A stretch of DNA of 64,000 bases, taken from UHGV virus genome UHGV-0018639, one strand, 5' to 3'. The notes beneath the pieces are model-generated. The model was not told where the DNA came from and made no database searches. It saw nothing but the letters and a program-made list of their open reading frames with translations. Positions 1,656-54,843 of the stretch are shown piece by piece (within the stretch, counting starts at the first letter, position 1; each line of letters starts with the position of its first letter). Position numbers and translations under genes: made by a program. The DNA is from a virus.

Positions 1656-4600
1656 ATGGCGCAAATACATTATAATTGTCTCGTTCCGGGCTGGACAGCA
1701 GATCAATGGAATGGGCAAGTAAATATAGGTTTTGAGCTTTCTTATAATAAAAACACAAATGAAACCACTGTAATTTTTACCGCTAATGAATGTTATCACA
1801 AGTATTTTGGTATTAATGGATGGGGTACTGAAGCCACCACTAATATCACAATTTATGCAACTGATAACACAGGTGATAAAAAAACTGGCTGGTTTTATAC
1901 TTACGGATATACTGATGGTGGAACAAAACAATTCAATGCAACACCAAGTAATATTGTTGTAAAGCACTCAAATGCAATCGGTGCAAAAAGTATCATTATT
2001 GAAACTTCGACTACAATAAAGGTGTATTTGAAAAAAGGTGTCCAATCAACTGGCACTGGTACTTATTCTGAAGCAGTTGCTTTACCAGCATCTCCAGTCA
2101 GCGTGCCGACTAGTTTTATGACCTCTGCGCAATCAATAATCATTCCGACTGGCTCAATTCCTTTGAGCTGGTCGGGTGCAACGGCTGGTATAAATAATGC
2201 AATAAAAGGTTATCACCTTTTCTGGAAAGTCGGCGGCGCACCAACAGCTAGTTCATATACAGATAAAATTGATGTTTCAAGTGCATCTTATACTATTAAA
2301 CTAAACTTGGGAGATAATCAACGAGGGCAAACGGTCTATACAGCAATTCAGACTTATGGTGAGATGGGGGTCAATTATGATTCTGACTTATTGGCTGGCC
2401 CTTCTGTTAAAATAAACTCACGACCAGCCGCGCCGGCCCTTTCGGCAACAAATGCAACATTGCCGTCAACAGTGGGTGCTTATAAGGTAAAAGTTGTGGC
2501 TGGTAAGGATAATGATCTATCACAAACTATTCAAGTAAGGCAAGGAGACGATGGCGAAGCGCAGGCAAGTGGAACGCAGTTCTCTTTTAATGGCGCTGGC
2601 ACTTTTACATTCTACTCTTTTGATGGATTAGAAAATTCAGCTACTGGAACCTCTATTACTATTATTCGTAATTCTAAGCCTGAAGTTGGCTCAATAAATA
2701 CGACTTTCTCAGCATCAATAAATACAAATGATAAGACTTTTTCAACAGCTCAACTCAAAAACGCAGATTCAAAAAAGCTAACTGCGGCGCAATGGTATAT
2801 ACGTTCAGCGGCAACTTCCGCTGAAATTTCAAGCGCAGCCGCGAGACAAATTACAACTGGCACAATTACAAACTCGTCAAGCGATGATAGCTCAAGTTGT
2901 ACTTTGATTATCAATCCATTAGCTTCTACTCCAATTGTTAATCCCGGCTACTACTATCAGATTGGCGTTCAACTCAAAGATGAGTATGAGTATAGTGATA
3001 TTGCTTGGTCAAGTAATATAAAGCAAATTTATGGCCAGCTTTCACTTACTTTGAATTCTATAACCGCTACTCATTTTGAAACAGGAATATCAGCGGCTTA
3101 TGCGTCTTATTATCGTATACCAAAAATAAATTTAAGCTGGAAATCGCCTGCTACTTTTCCAACTGGTCTTTCATCTTTATGGTATTCAATTTTCTATTCA
3201 ATAGATGCAGGTAATTCTTGGAAACAATGGAATAGTGGTATCCAATCACTTACTGCTAATACAACTTATACTCCAACAATTGATTTTTCAAGTGTAGGCC
3301 GTGGTGACTTTTTAGCAAAAATTGTTTTGTATGATAAGAAAGATGGCAGCAACCAGCAACTTGAGACTTCTATGTCAAACAAATTGTATTATTCACCAGA
3401 TCCGCAATGGATGGCTGGTTCAACCCCAACATTGGCCTATACAATAGAAGCGGACGACAACCGCACTTGTGTCCGTCCAAATTATAGTTCAAAAGGAACC
3501 AATGCGCTTACTTTATCTATTCCTTATCCGAGTACGATTAATACACTACTTCAAACTAATAAGGCTGACTTACAATATGCAATATATCTTTATCAAGATG
3601 GTAAAGATGTAAGTGCTGAAGTTCAAAGCAAGCAAAAAATTACGATAGGCGATAGTGCTGCAACAGAGACTGGCCCACTAAAACTTAATGTTGCTTACAG
3701 CAAGTTAACAAATCTTTATTCAACTTTTTTTGATAGCGATAAAACAAAATGGATTGGCCCTTATAATATGTCCATTATGGTGCGATTCTTTGATGCTTTT
3801 GAGGAATCAATTGATACGCCTAAAATGAGTTTTGTTTTAGACTTTCGTGAGAAACCAAAAAAAATTGAAACTTTAAAAATAGGTCGTGATGGCGTTCTGT
3901 CAAATAATTATGCCGCAGTAGCCGCAAAACGAAGCGCTAATACTGTAATTTTTCCGACTAGCTCTATTGACGCTGAAAAATCAATTTTAGTCGGTGAACA
4001 TTTAATAATTGCTTTTCAGAAGCCAGCCCTAAGCTATGAAGCACAAACAATTGGGCAATATATATTTACACTTTATAATAGTGAGCATAGTGCAATTTAT
4101 ACATATAGAACAGCCGATATTATTTCAGCTTCAATATATGGTGAGTCATCACTAAACTGCGTAGTAATTCCCGCGGCTGATTTTCTCAGTACAGCAACTA
4201 CTTTTTATGCAACAATTCGTCAGCAAGATAGTCAATCTTATAATGATAACATTAGTATCGAAAGCGATGGAAGTAATTCATTATGTGGTGGCTCATTAGA
4301 ACAACCAATAATCAATTTTGAAATGCCGGAACTATCTGTAAGTGGTGGTTCAATGAACATAACTGTCACTAAGAAGACGGCTTCTTTGAGTTGGAGCGGA
4401 ATTCAAGCAAAATATAATTCCTATTTGCGTACTATGGTATATGATGACATATCTTATAGCCCGCTTTGTAATTTATTTTTACAAATAAGTGAAAATAATG
4501 ATTTTAGTTCATCTTTTGAACTTCCATTGGCTAGTTACTCAAGCACTAATAAAACCTATAAGCTGGAAGCAAATGAATTTTCAAAAACTCTGAGTGATTT

Positions 4601-5467: not shown

Positions 5468-5592
5468 GCATTTTGTTCAATTTATTCTGAGATAATTAAG
5501 TAAATTGCTGAATTTCTTTTACGCTTACCAATAAAATGTCTAATAAGTCCACTAGTGCTACTTCCATATGAAGAAACAAAGGAGGTAGTAAA

Positions 5593-5940
5593 ATGAATCC
5601 TTTTCAAACCAATACCGTGCAGCCACAAAATAGATTTACGCCATCTATGTTTATGACGCCGCAAGGTAATGTTTATGTCATTGATAGTCCACTTGAAGTA
5701 GCCAATGTTCCTATGGGGACGGGTTTATCTGTCGCAATTTGTCCTAATGAAAGTCTTATGTATCTCAAGATGTATCAAAATGGTGCGCCATCAATTACGG
5801 CTTATAAACTCGCTCCCTATGAACAGCCAACTGGCAATAGTAATTTAGACAAAGTTCTACAAAACATAACTGATAGACTTGACAAAATTGAAAAATCTCT
5901 TTTACCTAAAAAGGAGGAAAAAATAAATGACCTTCTCTAA
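5593..5940 (+). CDS. hypothetical protein
   Basis: RBS aaaggaggtag upstream of the ATG. The ORF overlaps the next gene by 14 nt. Confidence 0.4.
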   Translation: MNPFQTNTVQPQNRFTPSMFMTPQGNVYVIDSPLEVANVPMGTGLSVAICPNESLMYLKMYQNGAPSITAYKLAPYEQPTGNSNLDKVLQNITDRLDKIEKSLLPKKEEKINDLL

Positions 5941-6166
5941 CCCTTTACAAGCACTTATGCAGATGGGAAGAGGCCCAATGATGAACGCTCTTCCCAATAT
6001 ATCAAAACCAGCTCAAAATCCACCGATAAATATACAACAATTGAAGCAAGCACTCCCGCAACTCACTAAAGAAAATTATGTGCAATTGGTTTCTCAGGCC
6101 CGCGCACAAGGAATTAGTGAGCAAGATATTGAATCAGGACTCAACTTTCTTTTACAACTAAATTGA
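5927..6166 (+). CDS. hypothetical protein
   Basis: RBS aaaaggaggaaaaa upstream. Small Gln/Pro-rich protein. Confidence 0.35.
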   Translation: MTFSNPLQALMQMGRGPMMNALPNISKPAQNPPINIQQLKQALPQLTKENYVQLVSQARAQGISEQDIESGLNFLLQLN

Positions 6167-6220
6167 TTTACGTCCGGGGTAAGTCAATTTATATTATAAA
6201 TTTTTAGGAGGTTTTTTGTA

Positions 6221-6919
6221 ATGAACGAAGGACTTAGCGCTGGCGATATTCTCGCTTTGACACGTGATAATGATGATGGTATGAATAATGCTTGGAATAA
6301 CCCTTTTATTTATCTTGTTTGGCTGGCATTGTTAGGTGGTAATGGCGGACTCTTTGGCCGTCGTGACGACTGTGCAACGCAAGGTGCAATAACTCGTTCC
6401 GACTTGTTCGAAGGTTTCAGCAATCAAGATGTAAATGGCCAACTTCGCGGTATTACTAATGGTATATGTGATGGCTTCTATGCTATTAATAGTGGAATGA
6501 AAGACGGCTTCTATGGTAATCAAGCCGTAATCAAAGATGGCTTTTATTCCACTCAAGGCGCACTTGCTGAGAATAGGTTTCAACAGCAACAGTGCTGCTG
6601 CGAACTCAAGGGTGAAATTAAAAACATCGCAACCGAAGGCTATCGCAATACCTGCGAAATCACTACCGCAATTCATAATGAAGGCGAAGCAACTCGCGCT
6701 CTCATAAATGCTAATACAATGCAAGAACTCCGTGATAAGCTTGCTGATAAAGATAGAGATTTGCTTTATGCAAACTTCCAGAACTCTCAGCAGCTCCAGA
6801 ACGCATATTTAGTTGATACTTTGCGTCCAGTTAGCAGACCTGCATATATCACTTGCAGTCCATATCAATCTGTCAACTCTTGTGGCACATCCAGCTGCGG
6901 CTGTGGCTATGGCATTTGA
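6221..6919 (+). CDS. hypothetical protein with Cys-rich C-terminus
   Basis: RBS taggagg upstream. N-terminal hydrophobic segment. C-terminus reads CSPYQSVNSCGTSSCGCGYGI. Confidence 0.4.
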   Translation: MNEGLSAGDILALTRDNDDGMNNAWNNPFIYLVWLALLGGNGGLFGRRDDCATQGAITRSDLFEGFSNQDVNGQLRGITNGICDGFYAINSGMKDGFYGNQAVIKDGFYSTQGALAENRFQQQQCCCELKGEIKNIATEGYRNTCEITTAIHNEGEATRALINANTMQELRDKLADKDRDLLYANFQNSQQLQNAYLVDTLRPVSRPAYITCSPYQSVNSCGTSSCGCGYGI

Positions 6920-13492: not shown

Positions 13493-14002
13493 TCAAATTT
13501 TGAGTTCACAAATGTGCGCTTTTTCCAAAGTTTGGTGAACATCTATAAGGCGCTGATTACGAGAGCCACGGAATGGCAAAGTTAAATCACGCTGCTCAAG
13601 AATAAAAGGGCCATCTACCACAACATCGCAAAGTTGGAGTGTTGTTGAAATGCGGCGAGGGGGATTGAAATCCTCCCAGTCCAAGTGGTAGCCAGTATAG
13701 AGCCAAATGTCTTTATTAGGAAATTTTTCTTTGATTTCTCTTAACAACTTATAGATAGTATTGTTGTTTTGTGGCTCAAGTGGATGACCGCCAGAAAGAG
13801 TGATTCCTTTTATCCAAGGCTTTGAAAGAGCGTCAAATAGTTCTTCTTTCGCGGTGTCATCAAAAAGTTTACCTGCGCAGAAATCCCAAGTTTCAGGATT
13901 ATGACATTCTTTGCAATGGAGAGAACATCCTGAAACCCAAAGAACGACACGCACGCCAAGACCATTTGCGATGTCGCATTTTGTTATTTTGATATAATTC
14001 AT
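13493..14002 (-). CDS. nrdG: anaerobic ribonucleoside-triphosphate reductase activating protein (radical SAM)
   Basis: CSLHCKEC (Cx3Cx2C) cluster in VVLWVSGCSLHCKECHNPETW. Start taken as the internal Met MNYIKITKCDIANG, overlapping the nrdD stop. Confidence 0.8.
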   Translation of the reverse strand: MNYIKITKCDIANGLGVRVVLWVSGCSLHCKECHNPETWDFCAGKLFDDTAKEELFDALSKPWIKGITLSGGHPLEPQNNNTIYKLLREIKEKFPNKDIWLYTGYHLDWEDFNPPRRISTTLQLCDVVVDGPFILEQRDLTLPFRGSRNQRLIDVHQTLEKAHICELKI

Positions 14003-14982
14003 TATGATTCTCCCAAATGTAAGACACGCTCTTTTATTTCTTGGGTACGGCCAAAATTCCAAAAATTAGAGCCAATATAGCCGCAAGTACGACGTGCAAC
14101 GTTCAAGGTAGAATGATCACGGTTGCCGCAATTTGGACAATACCACTCCATATTATCATCAATGAGAATTTCGCCATCGAAGCCACATTTCTGACAGTAG
14201 TCGCTCTTTGTATTAAGTTCAGCATACATTATGTTATCATAAATAAACCTATAAAGCTCTAAGACGGCAGGAATATTGTTTTGTAAATTAGGAACCTCTA
14301 CATAGCTTATTGCACCGCCCGGACTAAGTTTTTGAAACTCAGCCTCGAAAGCAAGTTTATCAAAAGCATTGATTTCTTCAAAAACAGGAACATGATAACT
14401 ATTTGTAATATAATTACGGTCATGCCCATCGAGTTTAATAAATATATCATTGCCAAATCGCTGTTTTAGGCAACGCGCAAACTTATATGTTGTACTTTCA
14501 ATAGGAGCACCATAGAGAGAATAATCAATTTTTTCAGCAGCTTTCCATTCAGCACACTTCTCATTTAAACGTGCCATTACTTCAAGAGCAAAAGGTTTCC
14601 CATCAGTCTGTGTATGGCTATGCCTTGTCATATATTTTACGCACTCATAAAGACCAGCATATCCAAGTGAAATTGTTGAATAGCCATTATGAAGCAATTT
14701 ATCAAGCCTCTCACCTTTTTCAAGACGAGCGAGTGCGCCATTTTGCCAAAGAATAGGGGCAACATCACTAAGGGTTCCCTCAAGACGCTTATGTCTAAGT
14801 TGAAGTGCTTTGTGGCATAATTCAGTACGCTCTTCAAATAGCTGCCAAAACTTATCAATATTACCGCCTGAACTAAAAGCTAAATCTGGTAAACTAATTG
14901 TAACAACACCTTGGTTAAAACGACCATAGTATTTTGGGTTATTATTTTCATCAACATAAGGAGTTAGGAAGCTCCTGCACAT
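14002..14982 (-). CDS. nrdD: anaerobic ribonucleoside-triphosphate reductase, exon 2 (C-terminal half with glycyl-radical domain)
   Basis: Glycyl radical motif RRTCGYIGS near the C-terminus. Zn ribbon CQKCG...CPNCG. The exon boundary lies upstream of the listed Met. Confidence 0.8.
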   Translation of the reverse strand: MCRSFLTPYVDENNNPKYYGRFNQGVVTISLPDLAFSSGGNIDKFWQLFEERTELCHKALQLRHKRLEGTLSDVAPILWQNGALARLEKGERLDKLLHNGYSTISLGYAGLYECVKYMTRHSHTQTDGKPFALEVMARLNEKCAEWKAAEKIDYSLYGAPIESTTYKFARCLKQRFGNDIFIKLDGHDRNYITNSYHVPVFEEINAFDKLAFEAEFQKLSPGGAISYVEVPNLQNNIPAVLELYRFIYDNIMYAELNTKSDYCQKCGFDGEILIDDNMEWYCPNCGNRDHSTLNVARRTCGYIGSNFWNFGRTQEIKERVLHLGES

Positions 14983-15742
14983 ATTATCCCATATCCCTAT
15001 GGGTACTGACTATATCTTCATTCCACTAAAAAGTGGAGTTGTCTTCCGCTTCGAGTGAGTGCCTATCTCTCACCCTACTCCCTTACATTCATCAGGGATA
15101 GTCGATACACTTCATTCATCATAATAAAAATTATAAGGAGTATTATTTGTCCGTTGCTGTAAAAGAAAGGTCCTGATACGATGTCTATCAATACCAGTTT
15201 TACGTTCGCATTCTCTCATTGACTTATAGTGAAAACGTTCTTTTGTCTCTTTATTTTCAGCAATTATCCAAATTCCACGCCCTTTATGCGGATTTATATA
15301 ATTGTTTTCCTGATAAGCCTTTCTAATATTTTCGCTGTGAGATACGGCCCGCAAATTAGAAAGTTCATTATGTGATTTATTTCCATCAATATGGTCTACA
15401 ACTGTACAATTATCAAGAAAAACTTCCGCCATAAGGCGATGAACGCGAGTTCGTATTCGATTGCCACCAAGACAAAGAACTACGTGTTGATACATATCAA
15501 TGCCAATATATGGACTAATTATTCTTCCCGTTTTAAAATTGATTATTTGAGCATCTTCATTTATACCAAATTGATTATTCAAACTTGGAATGGGCATAAA
15601 TTCTTTCATTATCTCACCTCCTTTTCATATTTATGATATATGATGAATTTTAGCACGGCCTCATCTGTTCTAGACCTAGCCGTTAGCCGCATTTGCGACA
15701 CCCGCGGGCGCGGTTCAAAAGATTTTATATGAGCTGCAGTTT
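14983..15742 (-). mobile_element. group I intron in nrdD carrying an HNH homing endonuclease ORF (boundaries approximate)
   Basis: About 760 nt separating the two nrdD halves. Non-coding flanks are structured; the flank motif ...gggatagtcgatac... recurs in the ORF-less insertion at 23919-24132. T4 nrdD (sunY) also has a group I intron. Confidence 0.6.
15112..15609 (-). CDS. HNH homing endonuclease (intron-encoded)
   Basis: HIDGNKSHNELSNLRAVSHSEN HNH motif. N-terminal IINFKTGRIISPY is AP2/NUMOD-like. Confidence 0.75.
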   Translation of the reverse strand: MKEFMPIPSLNNQFGINEDAQIINFKTGRIISPYIGIDMYQHVVLCLGGNRIRTRVHRLMAEVFLDNCTVVDHIDGNKSHNELSNLRAVSHSENIRKAYQENNYINPHKGRGIWIIAENKETKERFHYKSMRECERKTGIDRHRIRTFLLQQRTNNTPYNFYYDE

Positions 15743-16927
15743 TCACTTACCCATACAAGGATAACAACGACCCTTACCAGTTTTGTCTTTTTTTAATTCT
15801 AACATCATTTTTTCAGAAATAATATCAGGGACAAGACGCTTTGCTGTACATTTTGCTGCAAGTTCTGTTAAGTAAAAATACTTATCGCCCGGCTGTAAAT
15901 TATCAGGTTCAAGGACATAAAGTAACTTAGGAAATGCAGGCGTAATATAAACGCCTTTTTCATTCTTGAAACCTAAAATACGTTGTTTAATAAACTCCTC
16001 TATCAGCATTGCTAATTCATTCTTATATTCTTCTGTCTCGTTTAAATACATAAATACAGAAAGAAATGGTGCTTGACCATTTGTTGTTGTCATTGAATTG
16101 ACTTGATAGTTGAAAGTCTGAACAGCATCAACAACTTCTTTTTTTGTATCAAGTTGCGCATACTTATGCGCATTCTCATCGTCAAATCCCCAATCTTTAT
16201 ACTTCTTGAGATAAGCTTCATAAGAGCTTCTAACAAAAGGTGCAAGATGTGTAAGAGTAATAGTAGCACCACCATATGAAGAAGAAGCGACGCCAAGAAT
16301 TACTTGCGTTGCAATCGTAGAAGCTGTCAGAATTCTATGCGGCTTTTCAATTTTAACGTTATTAATTACAGTACCATTTTGAAGGACATCCTCTAAGTTA
16401 ATAAGATCGCAATTATGGAGGGTCTTCTGGCCGAAATAATCAATATCGTGGAAATGTATAATACCTTTCTCATGCGCGTCCACAATCTCAGGGGGAAGAA
16501 GAAATCGTTTAGAGATGTCTTCGCTAACAATACCGGCCATATAATCACGCTGTGTCGTTACAAGGTCGGCATTTTTATTTGAATTTTCAGCGTTCCAATA
16601 ATCACTTGTACCACTGATTAGTTCAAGTAAATCTTTGTCTGTTGTATTGCCTTCGCGCGCGAGTCTATGTTTATACCTGTATTCAACATAGCGCTCAGCC
16701 ACGTCTTTTCTTGAACTAGCCATAAGCCGCTCAACTACTAAGTCTTGAATTTCTTCAACGCTCAAATCTCTATTAAGCTTTTCTATTTGAGTAGCCACCA
16801 TTCGTGCCTTATTTTTGGCATAAGATGTTTCACGTCCATCTACTTCCAAAAAGGCTTTGAGAATGGCGACTCTAATTTTCTCTTTATCAAATGGAACCGT
16901 AGTTCCATCACGTTTTATGACGTACAA
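15743..16927 (-). CDS. nrdD: anaerobic ribonucleoside-triphosphate reductase, exon 1 (ATP-cone plus N-terminal catalytic half)
   Basis: ATP-cone VIKRDGTTVPFDKEKIRVAILKAF. Conserved NrdD core GIIHFHDIDYF. Last codons before the stop are probably intron-derived. Confidence 0.8.
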   Translation of the reverse strand: MYVIKRDGTTVPFDKEKIRVAILKAFLEVDGRETSYAKNKARMVATQIEKLNRDLSVEEIQDLVVERLMASSRKDVAERYVEYRYKHRLAREGNTTDKDLLELISGTSDYWNAENSNKNADLVTTQRDYMAGIVSEDISKRFLLPPEIVDAHEKGIIHFHDIDYFGQKTLHNCDLINLEDVLQNGTVINNVKIEKPHRILTASTIATQVILGVASSSYGGATITLTHLAPFVRSSYEAYLKKYKDWGFDDENAHKYAQLDTKKEVVDAVQTFNYQVNSMTTTNGQAPFLSVFMYLNETEEYKNELAMLIEEFIKQRILGFKNEKGVYITPAFPKLLYVLEPDNLQPGDKYFYLTELAAKCTAKRLVPDIISEKMMLELKKDKTGKGRCYPCMGK

Positions 16928-18267: not shown

Positions 18268-19728
18268 TTACTCACCCCTTACATGAGTTGTTATACGGCC
18301 ATATTCATCAATATCTGTTATTTCTTCAACCAGATGGTATGGGGTTCGGGAATATTTCTTCGCCAGAAATCCATCATCCTTTCTAATGCCACATACGATT
18401 ATCTTGTTGCCACGTGAGAAAGTGCTGCGACTGATAACGTGTTTCTTCCCATCAGGCCCTCTCTCCGAAATTTGCTTATCATAATTAGCAAATGCTTCGC
18501 CAAAAATTTTGACCTGAACAACGCCATCTTTTGTCAATAACGAAACAATTTTCTTTGCCTTATCCCTATCCAATACAGTTCCGCAAATACGATGTATTCT
18601 ATAAATCGGAACCGGCGCGCTATCACTATCCTTGCCGCGCGGTTTGAAGTAAGTCTCAACATCAGGCTGCTCTTTCAGTTTGAAGAAGTTTGAAAAGCCT
18701 TGCGCACGTTCATCAACATTTTGAAGTTCATGTTCGTGGAAATAACATGAAACGCTATCCATCTCCCACTTGCTTATTGAACCAAGACAATATTTATTCC
18801 AGATATCTCGCGTTAATCGCTCATTCACGGTATCTAGCAACTCATCATGATTTTCTTTTATCCACTTGCGGACATTATCCATATATTTCTTATAAATTTT
18901 GTCCCAAGCCGTGATGTTAATTTTGAAGCCACTTTCAGTTTCATTGCTTGCGCTCAAACAGTCAAGTGAAAAATTCTTATCAAGGAAATTCAATGCGATA
19001 TTATCTATGCCATAGAATGATGTGTCTAACTTCATTTTCTTGAGATACTTTGTGAAGTTATAAACACGACGCTCAAAATCAAGATTTTCGGGAATCAACC
19101 CAAAGTTTATCAACATTGCCATATTCTGAAGAGTGATACGTTTCTTTGTGTCGCTAATCAGGCTGACATATTCGCGCATTAAATCTACTCTATCACCAAA
19201 TGCATCAAAAGCTCCGCATTTTATGAGGTTTATCATTTGTGGCTTGTTGATTTTTACTTTGGAAAGAAAATCGGAGATTGAGTTATAGGGTCGATTTGCG
19301 ATTATGGATTTAACGATGTCTTCGCCGACTTTGACGATACCGCTCATACCATAACGAATTGTTGAATTTTCAACATCAGGAGAGAAAGTAAAAGTAGATT
19401 TGTTGATATCTGGAGGAGAAACCGAAATACCGGCCATTCGCATTTTACCGATTGCTGATGCAATTTTGCCATAGTTAGTCGTTTTGACTTTTTTCTTTTT
19501 CTTTTTTACATCAATTTTTTCTTCTTCGTCTTCATCTTCGTCGTCATCTTCGGTATCATCAACAAATTCTTCAATACAGTTGTTATAACTATATTCAATA
19601 ATATCTTCTGGCGTTTCGTCATCGTTCTCATCATTTGATTCATTGCCGCCGCTATCGCTAATCAAACACGCGCAATTCCAAAAAATTGTTGGAAAACGAT
19701 ATGCAAGATTCATTTCCTGCAAAGCCAC
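18268..19728 (-). CDS. DNA polymerase III alpha (DnaE-like), C-terminal portion (fingers/HhH/OB)
   Basis: GISVSPPDINKSTFTF matches the DnaE (V/I)LPPDIN.S..F motif. Long acidic linker. C-terminal OB-like region. Confidence 0.6.
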   Translation of the reverse strand: MALQEMNLAYRFPTIFWNCACLISDSGGNESNDENDDETPEDIIEYSYNNCIEEFVDDTEDDDEDEDEEEKIDVKKKKKKVKTTNYGKIASAIGKMRMAGISVSPPDINKSTFTFSPDVENSTIRYGMSGIVKVGEDIVKSIIANRPYNSISDFLSKVKINKPQMINLIKCGAFDAFGDRVDLMREYVSLISDTKKRITLQNMAMLINFGLIPENLDFERRVYNFTKYLKKMKLDTSFYGIDNIALNFLDKNFSLDCLSASNETESGFKINITAWDKIYKKYMDNVRKWIKENHDELLDTVNERLTRDIWNKYCLGSISKWEMDSVSCYFHEHELQNVDERAQGFSNFFKLKEQPDVETYFKPRGKDSDSAPVPIYRIHRICGTVLDRDKAKKIVSLLTKDGVVQVKIFGEAFANYDKQISERGPDGKKHVISRSTFSRGNKIIVCGIRKDDGFLAKKYSRTPYHLVEEITDIDEYGRITTHVRGE

Positions 19729-20855
19729 AAGCGAGTAGGAAAGAGTATGTGCTCGACAACTTACCGCACATAGTTTCTTATGCCAGATTTACTCTGTTGC
19801 GGTCTGGACTATACCATCAATTTCATTGTTTCCAATGAAAAAGTCCTTATTATAGTCTCTGAACGTTTTTCTTATCTCAATATATTTTCTATTCATACCA
19901 AAAGGCTTATTATAAACTAGAGCGATTAGTTTTAGGATATTGAACTGATTAGCGGTTTCAACTCTATATAAGCTATCTTCAGTTTTTCTTATATGTAAAT
20001 CTTCCATAAAGAAATTTTCTACTAAGATTTTTTCAATCCATTTGATAAATTCTTCAGATGCTGATACTATATAAAATTGAGCACCGCCATAAGAAGTTTT
20101 ACTGACACACCCATCACCGTCTATTATACCACGAATAATGTAAGGCAAATATCGCTTTTCTTGCTCATACAATTGCGGCGCCGGTATAATATATGTTTTA
20201 TTCTTTATTATACCATAACGGGCAGCCTCAGCTTGAAGACCCGGCCTATTTATCAATACCCTATATCGAGTTTGCTTTCCAGCTTGAGGATAGGCCTTAT
20301 AAGTTATTCCAATTCCTTTAGCTATAAAAGCAATAACATCTTCGTCCACCATATCCAACCCTAAGCCATCTCGATCGCTCAATAGATATCCATCCGTAAG
20401 CAGTAGCCCGATTAGATATGCATCGAACGGACTTTTGATTTCAGATAACGAATAGGTATATCCTCGACGATTATCTTGCGCTTGCCGTATAATTTCTTGA
20501 TATTCATCTGGATAATACTTTTTTACCTTGTCGGTTATAGACTTCTTTGTTTTATAACCATATCGACCCATTAGCTCTGAAACCGATGCCCCATTCTTAT
20601 ATTCTTCAACTAATTTTAGTTCATCTTCTTTTGATATTTTCTGATAACCCATAGTATATCCCTCCTAAGAATAAGTAGCCCTATTCAAATAGAAATACAC
20701 TAAAATAAGAAACTTCGCTGCGGATTATCCAATTCTAAATGATTTTACTATACCCTCTCTCTTTCTGAGAGGCCGCGATATTATTGCTAATATCGTTTAG
20801 TTATTTAGACTCTAAGGAAGTCCCCGCAATTTCAAGGATTTATACTCGTCTTGTA
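19729..20855 (-). mobile_element. intervening sequence in DnaE-like gene carrying a LAGLIDADG endonuclease (probable group I intron; boundaries approximate)
   Basis: Polymerase N- and C-terminal parts are contiguous ORFs on the same strand separated by ~1.1 kb. About 200 nt of structured non-coding flank lies at 20653-20855. Confidence 0.45.
19789..20652 (-). CDS. LAGLIDADG homing endonuclease (double-motif)
   Basis: Two LAGLIDADG motifs: LIGLLLTDGYL and IIRGIIDGDGCV. N-terminal HTH-like region. Confidence 0.8.
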   Translation of the reverse strand: MGYQKISKEDELKLVEEYKNGASVSELMGRYGYKTKKSITDKVKKYYPDEYQEIIRQAQDNRRGYTYSLSEIKSPFDAYLIGLLLTDGYLLSDRDGLGLDMVDEDVIAFIAKGIGITYKAYPQAGKQTRYRVLINRPGLQAEAARYGIIKNKTYIIPAPQLYEQEKRYLPYIIRGIIDGDGCVSKTSYGGAQFYIVSASEEFIKWIEKILVENFFMEDLHIRKTEDSLYRVETANQFNILKLIALVYNKPFGMNRKYIEIRKTFRDYNKDFFIGNNEIDGIVQTATE

Positions 20856-23360
20856 TTAGTCAAACGAGTACCCGCGCTGAACTCTGAACAAAACGTCCCA
20901 TACATAATGGGCAAAAGTCATATCACAACCTTTTTCTTTTGCATTTTCAAAATAGGCTTTTTCACATTCATCAAAGAGTTTGCCTTGTTTTTTTGCAATT
21001 GCCTTTCGACATTTATCTGCAAAAGTCAGATTATTCCCTCCGAGTCTTTCTTCCTGCAGAAGCTGCATCATTCCTTCTTGACTCTCACATATGCCACTCG
21101 TTATCGCATTATGTCCAATTAACCATTTTATATCTTCATTTTTTAATCCATATTGAATCATTTCGTCTCGCCATTCATTGATATTCAAACGATATCTTGC
21201 CCACATATCAAGTGGCTGCTCAGCTCCTTTTTCAGGAGCCATTAGACGAATTACTGAATTCAAAACAGCTAATTCACTAACGTTTTTAGGATGAGTTAGC
21301 GCTATGCCAGAAATGCCGCTCGGTTGTTCCATTTGAAACAAACTGGATATCTTATGATTCCAAACCATTTCCCACATTTCTGGTGCAGTTCGTTCAAGAT
21401 TATATATGCCAATTACACTTTCATAAGTTTCACGTAATGTTGGCTTTCGCTCTATATAACCATAATCACATAACAAATCTAGCTCATTGTGTATTTTATC
21501 AAGAGCTTCAATTGACAACATATCAATTTTGATCAGCGATGCGTCCTCCGCATCATGGAGTTCAAAAGCCGTAATGACCGTGCCATCAGGCGCGCGTGTT
21601 AGCGCTGTCGATTCCGTAAAAGGCTCGTCAACGAAGATCACTCCACCGGCGTGGACGCCAATGCCACAAATTAACCCCTCAATTTTTGAAGCAACTTCCC
21701 AAACATCACTGTAGGTTTTCATTGCTTCAACAAATTGCTTTACTGGCTTAAAACCTTTATCTTCATCACCCTCTATACATTGGGTAAGTGAGCGAAGTTG
21801 CCCGCGATCAGCTGGAATCAGAGATGCCAAATAGGATGCTACATCAACATCAATTCCCAAGCCACGGCAGGCCGTTAGAATTGCTGATTTAGATTTTTCT
21901 GTTTTGAATGTAATAACATTCGCAACTCTGTCTTCCCCATAAAACTCACGGAATTTCTGTAAAACTTGTGCACGACGTCCGCCTTCAATATCAGTATCAA
22001 CGTCCAATACCGACGCACGTTCGGGATTAAGAAAACGCCAATGAAATACTTGAGTTTCTTCTTGAATTGGATTTATCTGTGTTATATCTAATGCATATAA
22101 CAAAATAAATCCTGCACCTGAACCACGCCCCGGCCCAACAAGAGAACCAGCTTCCCAACATAAATCAATATTTTTCTGCAGATTCAGAAAATAAGTCGAC
22201 CAATGCGTGTGATTTGTTATCGACGAACGCCATGTATCATCAAGACAAATATTTATCTCATCATACGCTCGTTTGTTCTGCAAACCCGGCTTCCGTTGGA
22301 TGCCGTCAATAATCGCCCAAACCAGTTTTCTATCACCCCAATAATCAGAGTTATAGAAAGTTTCTAAATAAGGAATTTCATGTTTGAGAATATCATATGC
22401 TGCCTCATCTTCAGGAAATGTTTTCCAATAAAGTTCTGGAATTTTTAAGGGGCGCATTAGTGAAAAATCTTCACACATTTCACCTATCTTGAGAATATTA
22501 TAATATGCAACTTGAAGTTGTTCTTCGGTGAAATAATCGAAATACTCTTCTATTTCTTTCGTATTCATAAGATACGTAGTAGCATAGAAATCATCTACTT
22601 CTCGTTCACCATTCTGTGCATTGAGATATGCCTTATGAATCGCGCGATCTTCTTTTTTGAGATAATGGCTATCAGTTGTTATAACATAAGAAATGTCGTA
22701 TTTAGCTGATAATTCAAGCAACTTTTTATTTACATAAATTTGTTCTTTGTTATGACTTGGTTGCATTTCAAAAAAGAAATTACCGTGCCCAAAAAGTTTA
22801 TCCAAAGATAAAATCCAATTTTCAATTTTGCTATTGAGCGAGCTATCATTTCGTGCTTTGAGAAGCTGAGTAGGAAGACAGCCACCGAGGCAAGCTGTCA
22901 TTCCCACAATGTGTCCCGGATTAGCCCCTACGATTTCAAACAAATCACTATAATAAGTTGGCATACGACGCATACCACGCGCCATATAACTACGTAATCC
23001 TGCACGAGTAGATAATTCTCTAATTTGTTTATGCCCAATCGCGTCTTTTGCTAACAAAATAAAGTGATAATATTTATCTTGTCCTGTAATAAAATTCGAT
23101 GCATTTAACCCATTTCGACAAAGATAAATTTCATTTCCTTGAATAAATTTGAAATCAGGGTATTTTTCTTTTACTTTTTTATAATACTTTTCTGCCTTAA
23201 TCGCGCCAGATATTGACTCATGGTCTGTAAGAGCGACGACTTTATGACCCAACTCGATGGCGCGATCAATTAGGTCTGAGACTTTTATTATACAGTCTCG
23301 AAGCCTTTCATTAGAATAATCCGAGTGGTTATGTAATGACCCCGGATACGGAATATTCAA
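20856..23360 (-). CDS. DNA polymerase III alpha (DnaE-like), N-terminal portion (PHP and polymerase core)
   Basis: PHP domain start NIPYPGSLHNHSDYSNERL...ALTDHESISG. 834 aa. Consensus promoter upstream at 23393-23421. Confidence 0.8.
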   Translation of the reverse strand: MNIPYPGSLHNHSDYSNERLRDCIIKVSDLIDRAIELGHKVVALTDHESISGAIKAEKYYKKVKEKYPDFKFIQGNEIYLCRNGLNASNFITGQDKYYHFILLAKDAIGHKQIRELSTRAGLRSYMARGMRRMPTYYSDLFEIVGANPGHIVGMTACLGGCLPTQLLKARNDSSLNSKIENWILSLDKLFGHGNFFFEMQPSHNKEQIYVNKKLLELSAKYDISYVITTDSHYLKKEDRAIHKAYLNAQNGEREVDDFYATTYLMNTKEIEEYFDYFTEEQLQVAYYNILKIGEMCEDFSLMRPLKIPELYWKTFPEDEAAYDILKHEIPYLETFYNSDYWGDRKLVWAIIDGIQRKPGLQNKRAYDEINICLDDTWRSSITNHTHWSTYFLNLQKNIDLCWEAGSLVGPGRGSGAGFILLYALDITQINPIQEETQVFHWRFLNPERASVLDVDTDIEGGRRAQVLQKFREFYGEDRVANVITFKTEKSKSAILTACRGLGIDVDVASYLASLIPADRGQLRSLTQCIEGDEDKGFKPVKQFVEAMKTYSDVWEVASKIEGLICGIGVHAGGVIFVDEPFTESTALTRAPDGTVITAFELHDAEDASLIKIDMLSIEALDKIHNELDLLCDYGYIERKPTLRETYESVIGIYNLERTAPEMWEMVWNHKISSLFQMEQPSGISGIALTHPKNVSELAVLNSVIRLMAPEKGAEQPLDMWARYRLNINEWRDEMIQYGLKNEDIKWLIGHNAITSGICESQEGMMQLLQEERLGGNNLTFADKCRKAIAKKQGKLFDECEKAYFENAKEKGCDMTFAHYVWDVLFRVQRGYSFD

Positions 23361-50348: not shown

Positions 50349-50434
50349 GCGGGACTGGTGTAATTGGTAGCCACATTTGATTTAAGCTCAAATGGCCTTT
50401 GGTCGTAAGGGTTCGAGTCCCTTGTCCCGCACCA
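50349..50434 (+). tRNA. tRNA-Leu(UAA), type II
   Basis: Acceptor gcgggac/gtcccgc. Anticodon arm tttga-tttaagc-tcaaa. Long variable arm. 3' CCA encoded. Confidence 0.7.
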
Positions 50435-50501
50435 ATTGCCGTTTTCAGTGGCGGCTTAGAAACAGTTCTCAAAGAAGTATCAAAAAGAAAGGAGAAAATG
50501 A

Positions 50502-51404
50502 ATGTCATTTTTCGTAAGAACAGTAACTGATCGGTATGGGGATACAAATACTTATCCTCGTTGGGGCAGAATAGTGGGGTGCGCTATAGGGGCACTACTT
50601 GTTCTAATTATAATTCTCTCTTGTTTTACTAAAGTTCCTACTGGCAATACTGGTATTGTCACTACATTTGGTAAGGTTGAGAATTATACATTGGATTCAG
50701 GCTTTCATCTAAAAGCTCCGTGGCAGAAGATAGTTAAGATGGATAATCGAGTACAGAAGCAGAGTATTGATTTGATGTGTTTCTCTTCTGATATTCAGGA
50801 AGTCTCTATGACTTATACAATTAACTTCCAGATTAGTAAGAGCGATGCAATGACGATTTATTCTACCATCGGCACTCATTATTATGAAACCGTTATTATG
50901 CCTTGTATTACCGAGTCAGTTAAGACAGTTTGTGCACGATATACCGCAGAAGAGCTAGTGGGCATGAGAAGTGAACTTGCTTCAGCAATAGAGGAAGATC
51001 TTTCTGAGAAATTAATTAATTACAACATAGAGCTTGTTTCTACTTCTGTTGAGAACATGGATTTCACTGATGTCTTTACTGATGCTGTTGAAGCAAAGCA
51101 GGTTGCAGCACAGAATAAGCTCACCGCACAGACTCGTGCTGAGCAGGAAGTTATTGAAGCCGAAGCAGCGGCTAAGGTTCAGGTAATTCAGGCACAGGCT
51201 GATGCAGATGCAATGGTGGCTAAGGCTCAGGCCGAAGCAGAAGCGACTCGAATTCGTGCAGAAGCCGAAGCAGAAGCCAACGCGAAGGTTGCCGCGTCTC
51301 TAACAAATGCGCTAATTGATTATACTTATGCACAGCATTGGGATGGTAAGTATCCTACCTATTATGGTGGTAATGGTACGACTCCTGTTATCGATCTTAG
51401 ATAA
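50502..51404 (+). CDS. SPFH/band-7 (prohibitin/HflC-like) membrane protein
   Basis: N-terminal TM. VPTGNTGIVTTFGKV..GFHLKAPWQKIVKMDNRVQ SPFH core. Ala/Glu-rich coiled-coil tail. Confidence 0.65.
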   Translation: MSFFVRTVTDRYGDTNTYPRWGRIVGCAIGALLVLIIILSCFTKVPTGNTGIVTTFGKVENYTLDSGFHLKAPWQKIVKMDNRVQKQSIDLMCFSSDIQEVSMTYTINFQISKSDAMTIYSTIGTHYYETVIMPCITESVKTVCARYTAEELVGMRSELASAIEEDLSEKLINYNIELVSTSVENMDFTDVFTDAVEAKQVAAQNKLTAQTRAEQEVIEAEAAAKVQVIQAQADADAMVAKAQAEAEATRIRAEAEAEANAKVAASLTNALIDYTYAQHWDGKYPTYYGGNGTTPVIDLR

Positions 51405-51643
51405 ATAAATGAGCTGGCATCTCAATAAACTGCCATTAATATGGGTCAGTAGCGAATCGGCAAACGCAACGGGCTGTAAACCCGTCTCCTTCGGGAATAA
51501 TTGGATCGACACCAATCTGACTCACCAAGACGCAGCGGGTGTTAGATTTTCTACTGGGGAATACTGTGTCTAATATAGAGAAAATCATTTTTGTGAAATT
51601 CAAGTATATTCTAGCTAAATATACCGTAAAAGCCGGATTATAT

Positions 51644-51719
51644 GCCCAGATAGCTCAGTTGGTAGAGCAGGGGACTGAAAATTCCCGTGTCGCTGGTCCA
51701 ATTCCAGCTCTGGGCACCA
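51644..51719 (+). tRNA. tRNA-Phe(GAA)
   Basis: gcccaga acceptor. D-arm gctcagttggtagagc. Anticodon loop ctGAAaa. T-arm gctggtccaattccagc. CCA encoded. Confidence 0.8.
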
Positions 51720-51891
51720 TTTTGGGATTGTTTACTGCTTCTTGTTCCCTTGATCGTGAAAATGCATGAGTAGCGATTAAAAAACATCTAAGCGGCGTGC
51801 ATCGTTGGCCATCTGAGGGCTGCGTTAAGGCTTAAAAGGCCACAATCGATTGGGGTTGGTAAACCTCCTGCGGGGAAGCTTCCATTATTAT

Positions 51892-51974
51892 GGGCAAGTG
51901 GTGGAACTGGTAGACACAACAGTCTTAGACGCTGTCGCTTCGGTATAGGGGTTCGAGTCCCCTCCTGCCCACCA
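51892..51974 (+). tRNA. tRNA-Leu(UAG), type II
   Basis: Anticodon arm acagt-ctTAGac-gctgt. Long variable arm. T-arm ggggttcgagtcccc. One A-C mismatch in the acceptor stem. Confidence 0.6.
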
Positions 51975-52094
51975 TAAGTCTCCAAGAGGATGGATTTCGG
52001 CTAAACTACCACCGGCGCACAATGTGTGATATGTGGCTTTGTCATTTGTGGAGACTATAATAAATAAAAACGAAAGTAAGCCGACTTTTGAAAT

Positions 52095-52178
52095 GCAGGA
52101 TTGGTGGAATTGGCAGACACGGTGGATTCAAGTCCCACTGCTTTTAGCATAAGAGTTCAAGTCTCTTATCCTGCACCA
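52095..52178 (+). tRNA. type II tRNA, probably tRNA-Leu(CAA)
   Basis: Acceptor gcaggat/atcctgc. Leu-like D-arm tggtggaattggcagacac. Anticodon loop ttCAAgt with one mismatch closing the stem. Long variable arm. Confidence 0.55.
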
Positions 52179-52307
52179 TTGGTGGTCACTAGGGTTGTAT
52201 TCTTCTCAAGCCAAGTGAGTAGTGTTGATGAAACGAAATAGATGGTAAACAAATAATTGAGATTAAGTATGCAACCCGTTGTATTATTTTAATGAAAGGA
52301 GATAAAA

Positions 52308-52892
52308 ATGTCAGCAAATTTTTATATTAGCGATATCCATTTTGGGCATAAAAATATAATAAAATTTGATCATCGTCCTTTTAGTAGTGTTGATGAAATG
52401 AACAGCATACTTATTGCAAATTGGAATGATATAGTTGGTCACAATGATAATATCTACGTTCTTGGTGATTTTTGCTGGGGTAAATCTGATGAGTGGATTG
52501 ATATTCTGTCTCAACTCAAAGGTAATAAGTATCTCATTGCTGGTAATCACGACTTGCGTAATCCTCCTTCAGATGTGCGGCGTTTCTTTCAGGATTGGCG
52601 CGACTACAAAGAAATTTTTGACAATGGCCGCAAGGTTATAATGTGCCATTATCCAATTCCGTTCTATAAGTCAGACTATAATTCAGATACTTATATGTTG
52701 TTTGGTCATTTGCACACAACATTTGAGAATGGGTATATTGAGGATTTGCGCGAACGGATAGAGCACGATCCATATGAGCGTTCAGCAAAAAATCTTTGCC
52801 AGTTTTATAACGTTGGTTGTATGATGCCTTGGATGGAATACAAGCCGCACACGTTGGATGAGATTGTTGAGGGGTTTGGTAAATATCACTAA
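52308..52892 (+). CDS. calcineurin-like metallophosphoesterase
   Basis: DIHFGH, LGDFCWG, GNHDL, CHYP..GHLH motifs. RBS aaaggagat. Confidence 0.7.
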   Translation: MSANFYISDIHFGHKNIIKFDHRPFSSVDEMNSILIANWNDIVGHNDNIYVLGDFCWGKSDEWIDILSQLKGNKYLIAGNHDLRNPPSDVRRFFQDWRDYKEIFDNGRKVIMCHYPIPFYKSDYNSDTYMLFGHLHTTFENGYIEDLRERIEHDPYERSAKNLCQFYNVGCMMPWMEYKPHTLDEIVEGFGKYH

Positions 52893-52902
52893 ACCCACAT
52901 AT

Positions 52903-52991
52903 GCGGGATGAACTCAGACGGCTCTGAGACCGGTCTTGAAAACCGTGGGCAGGTGAAAGCTTGTGGGGATCGACACCTCCGTCCCGCGCCA
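52903..52991 (+). tRNA. atypical type II tRNA-Ser(UGA) with 8/4-like acceptor/T-stem and 6-bp D-stem (allo-tRNA/tRNA-Sec-like architecture)
   Basis: Anticodon arm ccggt-cttgaaa-accg is nearly identical to E. coli tRNA-Ser(UGA). The 5' gcgggatg pairs with cgtcccgc (8 bp). D-arm ctcaga-cggc-tctgag is a 6-bp stem with a 4-nt loop. The variable arm is 20 nt. T-stem gggg/cctc is 4 bp with T-loop atcgaca. Ends gCCA. Confidence 0.6.
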
Positions 52992-53087
52992 GTATGCGGA
53001 GTCAACCAGTAAGGTGCTGGACTCGCCTGCTAAGCGATGTGTAGCTATTCGGCTATTTGGTTCGTGTCCAAGGCTCCGCGCCAATAT

Positions 53088-53163
53088 GTGTCCTTAGTCC
53101 AATCGGTAGAACAACAGACTGTTAATCTGTAGGGTATAGGTTCAAATCCTATAGGACACGCCA
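53088..53163 (+). tRNA. tRNA-Asn(GUU)
   Basis: Acceptor gtgtcct/aggacac. Anticodon arm acaga-ctGTTaa-tctgt. T-arm ataggttcaaatcctat. CCA encoded. Confidence 0.75.
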
Positions 53164-53166
53164 TAT

Positions 53167-53243
53167 GCGCCATTAGCTCAGTTGGTAGTAGCACTTGATT
53201 TTTAATCAAGGAGTCCGCGGTTCAAGTCCGCGATGGCGCACCA
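53167..53243 (+). tRNA. tRNA-Lys(UUU)
   Basis: Acceptor gcgccat/atggcgc. Anticodon arm cttga-ttTTTaa-tcaag. T-arm cgcggttcaagtccgcg. CCA encoded. Confidence 0.75.
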
Positions 53244-53264
53244 TAATTTTTGGAGGAAGTAAAA

Positions 53265-54385
53265 TGAAATTAACAGAAAAGGGGGTTGCCGCGTTTGCCG
53301 CAGCGTTAGAGCACTGCCCCAATGAATCTTTTTCAGCGGCCAGCCTTTCAGCAAAGTGCGGCGCCTCTATTTCTGCAGCTACACTCAATGGTATTGTCAA
53401 TCAGGGACTTATGACTCGACTTGGTGGTTCGCCTGTCAAGTTTGAATTAGTGCCTAACGCGAAAGACTTGTATAGCAAGGCGCGCGAAGATAAGCCAGCC
53501 AACGAAAATCTTCGTAAAGCACAGGCCGCGAAAAATGATGAGTTTTATACTCGGTATCAGGATATCGAAAAAGAAGTCTTACAGTATGACTTGCGTGGCA
53601 AAAAGATTCTGTGCAATTGCAATGATGGGTTAGATAGTGAATTTACAAATTTCTTTATGGCAAATTTTGAAGCACTTGGACTCGCCGAAGTCGTTTGTCT
53701 GAGTTATGAGAAAGAAAAGCTTGCTTTCAAAACGGTTAGGCGCACACCCACAAAGCCCGATATAAAAGTTGAAGTAGCACGGATTCCCCTTAAAGGAAAC
53801 GGGGCTTTTGATTCATGCGAAGGTCGAGAAGCTTTAGCGGCCTGTGATGTTGTTATCACTAATCCGCCGTTCAGTCGGTTTCGTGAATTTGTCAATTTGA
53901 TTTTGTCTTACAAGAAAGACTTTTTGATAATTGGCAGTAAAAACGCTATTACTTATAAAGAGTTCTTTCCTCTTCTAATGAATGGCAAAGTTCATATTGG
54001 CAATTATAATGTTTCTACTTTTAAACAGCCCGATGATACTGAGAAGAGATTTGGAAACATTGGTTGGTTTACGACCCTTCCTGTCGCAAAGGCCACACAG
54101 CCAATTCCTTTAACAGCAACCTACGATTCCGTCAATTATCCTGCCTATGATAATTTTCATGCAATCGAGGTAAGCCGCACAGCTAACATTCCAAAAGATT
54201 ATGATGGTGTGATGGGCGTTCCTATTTCATTCCTTGATAAGTTTTGTCCTACTCAATTTAAAATTGTTGGATGGAGCAGACATAATGATGAAGGAATGGA
54301 CGGCGGATATTGGACGGGCGGTTGTGCAGATGCTACTATAAATGGTAAACGAGTTTATCGTAGAATTTTGATTCAGAAAATTTGA
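53265..54385 (+). CDS. N6-adenine DNA methyltransferase
   Basis: Catalytic motif IV DVVITNPPFS. AdoMet-binding-like ILCNCNDG. RBS ggaggaag upstream of MKLTEKG. The ORF-track start at 53195 lies inside tRNA-Lys and was rejected. Confidence 0.6.
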
Positions 54386-54410
54386 TTTTTATCAAAATTT
54401 TCGATATAAT
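54382..54410 (+). promoter_or_regulatory. sigma70-like promoter (conserved phage motif)
   Basis: aaaaTTTGATTtttatcaaaattttcgaTATAATatatatagaaagttgagag. Confidence 0.55.
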
Positions 54411-54553
54411 ATATATAGAAAGTTGAGAGAAATGGTTCTAACAAGCCAGCGTGCGCGCGAGTAAAAGTTGTTAGTAAGCGGTTGGCATACGTGATAAGCC
54501 ATTGCCCCAGCGAGAAGATTTAATAAATCTTCTTTGTTGGCGGTGTTCAATTT

Positions 54554-54627
54554 CGGGGATGTGGTGTAATGGTAGCACACTTGATTTGGGGTCAAGAAGA
54601 GTGGTTCAAATCCAACATTTCCGGCCA
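54554..54627 (+). tRNA. tRNA-Pro(UGG)
   Basis: Anticodon arm cttga-ttTGGgg-tcaag. Acceptor cggggat/atttccg with two G-U pairs. Imperfect T-stem. CCA encoded. Confidence 0.55.
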
Positions 54628-54634
54628 TAAAAAT

Positions 54635-54721
54635 GCTGAGTTCCCATAGTGGTCGATTGGAGCGGTTTTGTAAGCCGCAGACTTCGTGTCCGCATCAGTT
54701 CGAATCTGATACTCAGCTCCA
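54635..54721 (+). tRNA. 87-nt tRNA with long variable arm and UGU (Thr-type) anticodon in the 7-nt loop register
   Basis: Perfect acceptor gctgagt/actcagc. Perfect T-arm atcag-ttcgaat-ctgat. Anticodon arm gcggt-ttTGTaa-gccgc, which needs a U-G closing pair; GUA lies one nt 3'. 15-nt variable region agacttcgtgtccgc. CCA encoded. Confidence 0.55.
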
Positions 54722-54725
54722 CTAT

Positions 54726-54801: not shown

Positions 54802-54843
54802 ACAATTTCATTTTTTCATTTTTCAAATTTCCTTTCTTAAAAT

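Follow-up and report, generated by a model that had tools for sequence, protein, structure and literature searches.

A very probable mobile IA2-type group I intron with an HNH endonuclease gene between the glycine and catalytic cysteine codons of nrdD in the virus genome UHGV-0018639

Introduction

Group I introns located beside catalytic residues of phage ribonucleotide reductase genes, and accompanied by HNH or GIY-YIG endonuclease genes, have long been known, nrdD being the reductase gene most often split in sequenced phages (PMC3653736). Among the Jug phages of the gut, 95 of 104 genomes have a split nrdD, the splicing of which is supported by metatranscriptome reads (PMC12880540), and subgroup IA2 makes up over half of the viral group I introns (PMC11835236). 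Here we describe an insertion in the nrdD gene of the virus genome UHGV-0018639, which was analysed as a window of 64,000 nucleotides (the whole stretch of DNA under study). Positions 14980..15748 of its minus strand are in all likelihood occupied by a mobile IA2-type group I intron, which interrupts nrdD in phase 0 just after a Gly codon and before that of the catalytic Cys.

An earlier note on this DNA, made from the sequence alone, had proposed a group I intron with an HNH endonuclease gene that splits nrdD, and the proposal is supported here by covariation among relatives and by natural intron-less alleles.

Results

The insert and its host gene

Two open reading frames (ORFs) of the minus strand, 15743..16927 (394 aa) and 14002..14982 (326 aa), flank a gap of 760 nt. 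The first one matched the Pfam ATP-cone (E 1.8e-21) and positions 1-262 of the 562 of the NRDD profile, and the second one matched NRDD positions 264-562 (E 7e-101) and Gly_radical (E 2.7e-17). As the two NRDD matches abut at one profile position, the ORFs are colinear halves of nrdD. ORF and Pfam analyses thus bear out the earlier claim of NrdD halves in separate ORFs of the same strand about 760 nt apart, to which the strand, left unstated at that time, can be added.

Uninterrupted nrdD genes were found in the IMG/VR contigs L205, L159 and L160, the NrdD proteins of which are 100%, 99% and 96% identical, respectively, to the spliced product expected from the window. In a megablast comparison with L205, similarity runs to position 15749 of the window and resumes at 14979, L205 itself being continuous at this point (4179|4180). 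As the break falls exactly at 15749|14979, the inserted element is 14980..15748. The location given in the earlier note (14983-15742) was therefore right, but its limits were not, because those deduced from the ORFs take in one intron codon plus a stop (six bases) on one side and, on the other, an ATG that consists of the last three bases of the intron. The resulting arrangement is as follows.

15749..16927, minus strand: nrdD exon 1, 393 codons, with the ATP-cone and the N-terminal half of the reductase, ending in ...CYPCMG
14980..15748, minus strand, 769 nt: very probable group I intron, phase 0, between Gly393 and Cys394
14002..14979, minus strand: nrdD exon 2, starting with CRSFL..., with the glycyl-radical domain and the RRTCGYIG motif

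Read on the minus strand, exon 1 ends in ...UGU AUG GGU and exon 2 starts with UGC AGG AGC, the predicted sequence of the ligated junction being CCTTGTATGGGT|TGCAGGAGCTTCC. Joining of 15749 to 14979 is in frame and produces a NrdD of 718 aa. The alignment of the exons to an intact NrdD, suggested in the earlier note as a check, was carried out with solved structures and was free of gaps across ...PCMG|CRSFL... (PDB 9d3x, E 2e-136; T4 1h78, E 2e-111). Removal of the insert therefore restores an uninterrupted host gene, as judged by the in-frame join, by this alignment and by the natural intron-less alleles with an identical junction. The protein is a class III NrdD, with NRDD and glycyl-radical domains, the sequence MGCRSFL aligned to the corresponding motif of T4 1h78, and RRTCGYIG at the C-terminus. 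By alignment position, Cys394, just after the junction, is the equivalent of Cys290 of T4 NrdD, which we take to be the thiyl-radical residue of the T4 enzyme.

An insertion at such a site could in principle be an intein, removed by splicing of the protein. Inteins are described for phage nrdD (PMC3653736), and two of the relatives examined appear, by eye, to have an intein-like in-frame insertion at this same Gly|Cys site. In the window, however, the reading frame meets a UGA two codons past the junction, and this already refutes an intein; moreover, the internal ORF is arranged differently, with a ribosome-binding site and a start of its own, and HNH_3 was the only domain found by Pfam, with no intein or Hint domain. 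The probability of an intein is thus practically nil.

Group I fold of the insert

The sequence of the insert and of its exon ends can be folded into a complete group I structure of the IA2 type, with P1, P10, the P3/P7 pseudoknot, P4-P6, P7.1/P7.2, P8, P9 and a terminal G, and with P2 absent. The model, built by hand and by inspection, contains 80 pairs, all of them standard in the window (78, plus two at the base of P8 after re-registering). Its elements are listed below in the direction of transcription, except for the exon strands, which are given together with the guide.

15749..15755, minus strand: exon strand of P1, UAUGGGU, modelled to pair with the guide GCUCAUA, with a U.G wobble at the 5' splice site
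15728..15739, minus strand: internal guide sequence, composed of CUGCA (P10 strand, 15735-15739) and GCUCAUA (P1 strand, 15728-15734)
14975-14979, minus strand: exon strand of P10, UGCAG, the first bases of exon 2, modelled to pair with CUGCA
15716..15722, minus strand: 5' strand of P3, UCUUUUG, paired with 15042-15048 (CGGAAGA)
15686..15713, minus strand: two extra hairpins between P3 and P4, one P3.1-like (15702-15713) and one P3.2-like (15686-15699)
15652..15683, minus strand: P4 (15678-15683/15655-15660), the P5 hairpin (15663-15675) and the 5' strand of P6 (15652-15654)
15639..15647, minus strand: 5' strand of P6a, UUCAUCAUA, paired with 15115-15123 across the ORF
14980..15123, minus strand: 3' half of the ribozyme, the first part of which comprises P6a' (15115-15123), P6' (15109-15111), P7 (15098-15103), P7.1 (15080-15097) and P7.2 (15053-15075)
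Remainder of the same 3' half, minus strand: P3' (15042-15048), P8 (15019-15041), J8/7 and P7' (15008-15019), P9 (14988-15003, with a GGGA tetraloop) and the terminal G (14980)

P7 is formed by GACUAU/AUAGUC and makes the pseudoknot with P3, and the 3' end of the intron reads ...UAAUAUG, with the terminal G at 14980. Assignment to subgroup IA2 is based on the presence of P7.1 (CCCU/AGGG) and P7.2 (GGGUGAG/CUCACUC) between P7 and the 3' strand of P3, such helices being characteristic of subgroup IA. A hairpin that follows the guide region was considered as a possible P2. It was discarded as such, since the long-range P3, which covaries, precedes it on the 5' side; both extra hairpins are consequently located between P3 and P4. 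When each flank of the ORF was folded alone, the minimum-free-energy structures recovered the hairpins of the comparative model, including P4 and P5, in agreement with the previous description of these flanks as structured non-coding sequence.

Covariation of the fold and of the guide

Support for the fold was evaluated in an alignment (A1) of 38 distinct relatives, in which P6a was trimmed to 7 bp per side. Standard pairs occupied 96.0% of 2887 cells, compared to 81.1 ± 0.4% in shuffled alignments and 37-43% when the partner was slid by 1-3 columns. Compensatory changes, affecting both sides, were found in 41 of the 80 pairs, and the covariation score (0.395 vs. 0.122 after shuffling) was reached in 0 of 500 shuffles. 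For the long-range helix P3, 99.2% of the cells were paired, with compensatory changes in 4 of 7 pairs; the corresponding values for P4 and P5 were 99.7% and 99.1%, also with compensatory changes. The two extra hairpins covary as well (3 of 4 and 3 of 5 pairs compensatory), as do P6 (2/3), the part of P6a kept in the alignment (7/7), P7.1 (3/4), P7.2 (5/7), P9 (5/6) and P8.

The guide also changes together with the exon. Position -7 of the exon, which is a synonymous third codon position, and position 7 of the guide form GC in 17 cases, CG in 14, AU in 3 and UA in 2, the window having the U-A combination that matches its own TGT codon. P10 is paired in 85.8% across the relatives (CUGCA/UGCAG in the window vs. 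CUACA/UGUAG in relatives), and the U.G pair at the splice site was invariant in 38 of 38 sequences, collected with patterns in which ATGGGT and GCTCAT were fixed.

These data bear on an alternative in which a free-standing homing-endonuclease gene has split nrdD and both halves are translated separately and assemble into an active enzyme without any splicing, as in nrdA of Aeromonas phage Aeh1, which is interrupted by mobE. Split but functional ribonucleotide reductase genes are indeed documented (PMC3653736), and the downstream ORF of the window begins with an ATG right at the junction. However, this ATG corresponds to the last three bases of the intron, is replaced by ACG, CTG or GTG in relatives, lacks a ribosome-binding site and is preceded by the P9 hairpin. 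In addition, the split falls between the Gly and the catalytic Cys of a single loop, and the flanks of the endonuclease gene form a complete and covarying group I fold. A guide that co-varies with the exon in the context of a conserved fold would be unexplained without splicing, and separate translation of the two halves is for these reasons highly improbable.

Weighing of the evidence

Several results weigh against a splicing group I intron at this locus. At the gathering score of the Rfam group I model RF00028 (50 bits), a scan of the whole window gave no RF00028 match at the locus, nor was any gathering-level match obtained in seven ORF-less relatives (L010, L012, L018, L021, L026, L033 and L085). 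The z-scores of single-sequence folding were modest (-1.9 and -1.5). As P7 and segments of P1 and P4 were constrained by the patterns employed to collect the relatives, invariance there is uninformative. No cluster of exon differences indicative of a co-conversion tract was detected beside the junction between the window and L205, so that a recent gain by homing and a recent precise loss in L205 are indistinguishable. Finally, splicing itself is inferred from sequence, not observed.

The negative Rfam result was rejected as evidence of absence on the basis of a run in E-value mode, of the ORF-less relatives and of the covariation described above. In E-value mode the window produced a match of 20.9 bits (E 0.0088), restricted to the 3' half, whereas the T4 sunY intron scored 105 bits. 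For the ORF-less relative L010, the model passed over the P4-P5 region and the score was 44.2 bits (E 3e-10). The shortfall is probably due to the 498-nt ORF in P6a and to the two hairpins between P3 and P4, which the model skips. The RF00028 search had been proposed in the earlier note as the check that could refute an intron; with its sub-gathering score it would have misfired in that role, the fold being established by other means. Therefore, default Rfam annotation misses the entire family, and surveys with RF00028 at default thresholds would report split nrdD genes.

The sub-threshold score in the window would also fit a decayed relic of an intron that no longer splices, nrdD being then a pseudogene. 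Fragmented endonuclease ORFs in many members of the family point in the same direction, as does the family member L007, in which P1 has a mismatch and the exon frame is broken. Against this, the window retains every one of the modelled pairs, a guide base (A) that matches the TGT codon of its own exon, an intact endonuclease ORF that is identical on independent metagenome contigs, and two intact exons whose protein equals that of the intron-less allele L205 over its full sequence. A relic in the window is thus very unlikely, and a functional IA2-type intron remains the preferred interpretation.

A contact between the first extra hairpin and L7.2

The loop of the first hairpin after P3 is complementary to L7.2 (15704..15707 with 15060..15063 in the window; columns 57-59 with 198-200 in A1). 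This putative P3.1 x L7.2 contact was paired in 100% of 114 cells, with compensatory changes in 3 of the 3 pairs scored, examples of it being GCC/GGC, GCU/AGC, ACUC/GAGU, UCCAA/UUGGA and GUCC/GGAC. In subgroup IA, a known pseudoknot, P11, joins an extension of P7 to an extension of P6 (PMC12088405), and P3.1 is listed as an optional helix (PMC3873408). The contact predicted here resembles P11 but would use a hairpin between P3 and P4 rather than the P6 extension, which is unusual. No description of a P3.1 x L7.2 arrangement was found in a shallow search of the literature.

The HNH endonuclease and other cargo of P6a

The loop of P6a contains the ORF that the earlier note had identified as an HNH endonuclease gene, and this identification is borne out by matches to HNH_3, PHROG 59 and I-HmuI.

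15112..15609, minus strand: putative HNH homing-endonuclease gene, 165 aa, I-HmuI-like, located in the P6a loop, with an AGGAGG ribosome-binding site at 15617-15622

Residues 55-94 matched Pfam HNH_3 (PF13392) with 34.1 bits, compared to a cut-off of 24.8, and show the motif VDHIDGN...NLR...SHSEN. The match to the HNH endonucleases of PHROG 59 had an E-value of 1.5e-24, and the alignment to I-HmuI (PDB 1u3e) covered the full length of the protein (residues 6-163 vs. 5-170, E 2.1e-9). An identical 165-aa protein is present on two metagenome contigs from ENA.

In 59 introns of the family, the P6a loop mostly holds a GIY-YIG gene, which is often fragmented, and 12 of these introns are devoid of ORF. 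Among the same 59, an HNH gene of the type found in the window was restricted to the window itself, the two ENA contigs and L014, with a remnant in L101; as judged by eye, L002 has a similar HNH ORF in P6a. The last codons of the HNH gene (YDE, stop) are at the same time the 3' strand of P6a, and the ending ..YYDE, stop is common to the HNH ORF of the window (15112..15126) and to the unrelated GIY-YIG ORFs of L007, L011 and L017. These identical P6a-encoded tail codons on HNH and GIY-YIG ORFs indicate that the endonuclease gene has been swapped inside a stable stem.

Two other contents of these loops were observed. In the ORF-less intron of L018 (1079..1384, minus strand), the P6a loop keeps a ribosome-binding site and an ATG directly before a TGA, apparently a scar left behind when the endonuclease gene was precisely deleted. 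In L002 (about 1800..2100, minus strand), the second of the hairpins that follow P3 has an additional ORF in its loop.

Distribution of the family and occupancy of the site

The intron of the window was placed in a family by BLAST and alignment. A search with a 32-mer of the core detected 17 IMG/VR contigs, and a search with a P4/P5 pattern detected at least 120 IMG/VR contigs and 25 contigs of a genome collection, mostly from gut metagenome-assembled genomes of Clostridia and Bacilli. Splice sites could be placed by rule in 57 loci, all of them at ATGGGT|TG(T/C) of nrdD.

When 79 relatives of this NrdD clade were inspected, the Gly|Cys site was empty in 53, and others had at this same place divergent members of the family or an intein-like insertion, or a different intron two bases upstream. 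Closely related phages, with about 90-94% DNA identity around nrdD, are polymorphic for presence or absence of the intron, which is an indirect indication of homing. The window and L205 show ~1 difference per 100 nt for ~1300 nt upstream and ~650 nt downstream, compared to 12-37 per 100 nt further out. By this comparison, the intron was apparently either gained or precisely lost recently.

Some relatives carry other insertions. An in-frame intein-like insertion (CVDGKEL...) directly after CMG was recognized by eye in L218 and L232 (around 4155-4170), and L221, L229 and L233-L236 probably have one too. In L215 a different intron, with another HNH ORF, is inserted two bases upstream of the Gly|Cys site. 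A second, downstream insertion in nrdD was found in L003 (3131..4223) and L010 (about 5571..6665), at a place equivalent to about 14392 in the window; that of L010 holds another copy of the P7-P7.1 core (6350..6411), so that two related introns are present in one gene. Introns of the same architecture but with other guide sequences were also found in other genes (L005, L006, L009 and L013), the host of that in L013 being apparently a structural gene. These four share the two hairpins after P3, a GCUAACGG P4 and an identical P7-P7.1.

Phage context and other elements of the window

When compared by blastn with the phages of GenBank, the only similarity of the window was an exact match of 33 nt (15072-15104) to a T4-type nrdD intron; thus, the phage has no characterized close relative in that collection. 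No NrdD of the phage collection exceeds about 62-63% identity to that of the window, the best matches being an unannotated phage record from human faeces and Enterocloster phages. Also present in the window are genes of DnaE, DnaB and gyrase A and B, as well as a tRNA array and a ROOL RNA. Replication genes, NrdD and DNA similarity together indicate a lineage unrelated to T4, as the earlier note had anticipated.

Directly downstream of nrdD lies the gene of its activase, in an operon context.

13493..14062, minus strand: nrdG activase gene (Pfam Fer4_12, E 2e-45, and Radical_SAM)

Other elements of the window are given here as separate observations. A second group I intron, without ORF, is located at 57971..58189 within 57666..58738 of the plus strand (RF00028, 88 bits), where it interrupts the gene of a PhoH-like ATPase directly behind the Walker A motif (..GSGK); positions 187-264 and 264-439 of PHROG 2765 are matched by the two resulting ORFs. 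The dnaE gene is split too (18268..23360, minus strand), its N-terminal 834 aa (PHP, polymerase and finger) being encoded by 20856..23360 and its C-terminal 486 aa (HHH_6) by 18268..19728, with a LAGLIDADG endonuclease ORF of 287 aa (19789..20652) in between; no gathering-level Rfam match was obtained at this split. Lastly, the ROOL RNA (54967..55612, 269 bits) is located within an array of 11 tRNA genes (50349..56919, plus strand).

Discussion

The fold suggests a pathway of conventional type for the expression of nrdD in this phage. The guide GCUCAUA would pair with the last seven bases of exon 1, UAUGGGU, to form P1, with the U.G wobble at the cleavage site, and a free guanosine bound in P7 would attack the 5' splice site. 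The 3' exon would be held by the CUGCA bases of the guide through P10, the terminal G (14980) would replace the guanosine, and ligation of the exons would yield an mRNA for the intact 718-aa NrdD. On unspliced RNA, the in-frame UGA two codons into the intron would stop ribosomes. In co-infections, the I-HmuI-like HNH enzyme, translated from its own ribosome-binding site, would be expected to introduce a cut or nick in nrdD alleles that lack the intron, and repair of the cut allele would copy the intron in. The self-splicing chemistry and the endonuclease activity are both inferred.

For annotation, the consequence is that nrdD should be treated as one intact gene, and not as two fragments or a pseudogene, likewise in many genomes of uncultivated gut phages with relatives of this intron. 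The family constitutes a compact natural series, with occupied and empty alleles and, within a single loop, HNH, GIY-YIG, decayed or deleted cargo. Intein-like insertions and other introns found at Gly|Cys are also part of the series, as is the sister lineage of T4 sunY, which occupies another site of nrdD. Such a series could be useful for studying the homing cycle and changes of site. The known workings of such elements are unchanged by our finding. What is added here are the exact boundaries, the homology to the differently located T4 sunY, the extent of the family together with its invisibility to the Rfam threshold, and the P3.1-L7.2 contact.

Among described systems, the introns of Twort nrdE, SPbeta bnrdE/bnrdF, T4 nrdB, Lactococcus phage 949 nrdD and Jug nrdD can be likened to that of the window by description, rather than by sequence or site: all are of the self-splicing type, often have endonuclease genes and lie beside catalytic and highly conserved residues. 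In the case of the SPO1 DNA-polymerase intron, which encodes I-HmuI, an enzyme that nicks one strand, the likeness is that of a phage group I intron with an HNH endonuclease gene in a gene of replication or nucleotide metabolism, whereas the host gene and host clade are others and the identity between the endonucleases is low. Aeh1 nrdA shares with the window a reductase gene cut by a homing-endonuclease gene; in Aeh1, however, a ribozyme is absent and the halves are translated separately, whereas the endonuclease gene of the window is enclosed by a complete group I fold.

The closest system is the nrdD (sunY) intron of T4, with which the intron of the window shares the host gene, an IA2-type core with P7.1/P7.2, the absence of P2 and an early in-frame stop inside the intron. 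The guides are nearly identical (GCUCAUG in T4, GCUCAUA in the window), and so are the 5' exons (UAUGAGU and UAUGGGU). A tentative and rather unlikely idea is that the T4 sunY intron and the gut-phage family have a common ribozyme ancestor, which changed from one site of nrdD to another. The change would have been possible because an unchanged guide, GCUCAU, meets almost identical 5' exon heptamers at the two sites. This hexamer pairs perfectly at the T4 site and with one G.U wobble at the Cys site, and many family members would since have improved it to GCCCAU. The shared guide is equally compatible with reverse splicing and with insertion at the DNA level followed by selection for splicing ability. 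If the idea were true, a phage protein-coding gene would offer evidence from nature that introns transpose to ectopic sites under the constraint of P1 pairing.

The differences between both introns concern site, cargo and periphery. The T4 intron splits codon 180 (AYE|YEV), whereas that of the window lies 110 codons downstream, at the equivalent of Gly289/Cys290 of T4, where T4 itself (L001, 3763..3771) holds ATGGGT|TGC, the exact target site of the gut family, unoccupied. T4 carries the GIY-YIG gene of I-TevII downstream of P9, whereas the window carries an HNH endonuclease gene in the P6a loop. After P3 the window intron has the two additional hairpins, which T4 sunY lacks, the alignment being gapped there, and its L7.2 is longer; T4 sunY passes the Rfam gathering score whereas the family of the window does not. 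With another insertion site and without I-TevII, the window intron is not an orthologue of T4 sunY at the same homing site. The parallel to T4 drawn in the earlier note thus does not extend to where the intron is inserted, to the family of its endonuclease or to the loop bearing the ORF. It holds for the core: after deletion of the ORF, 160 of 219 aligned bases (73%) are identical to T4 sunY, including P7, P7.1 and J8/7-P7'. As judged from this alignment, the link between the two introns is homology of the ribozyme core and not a mere parallel.

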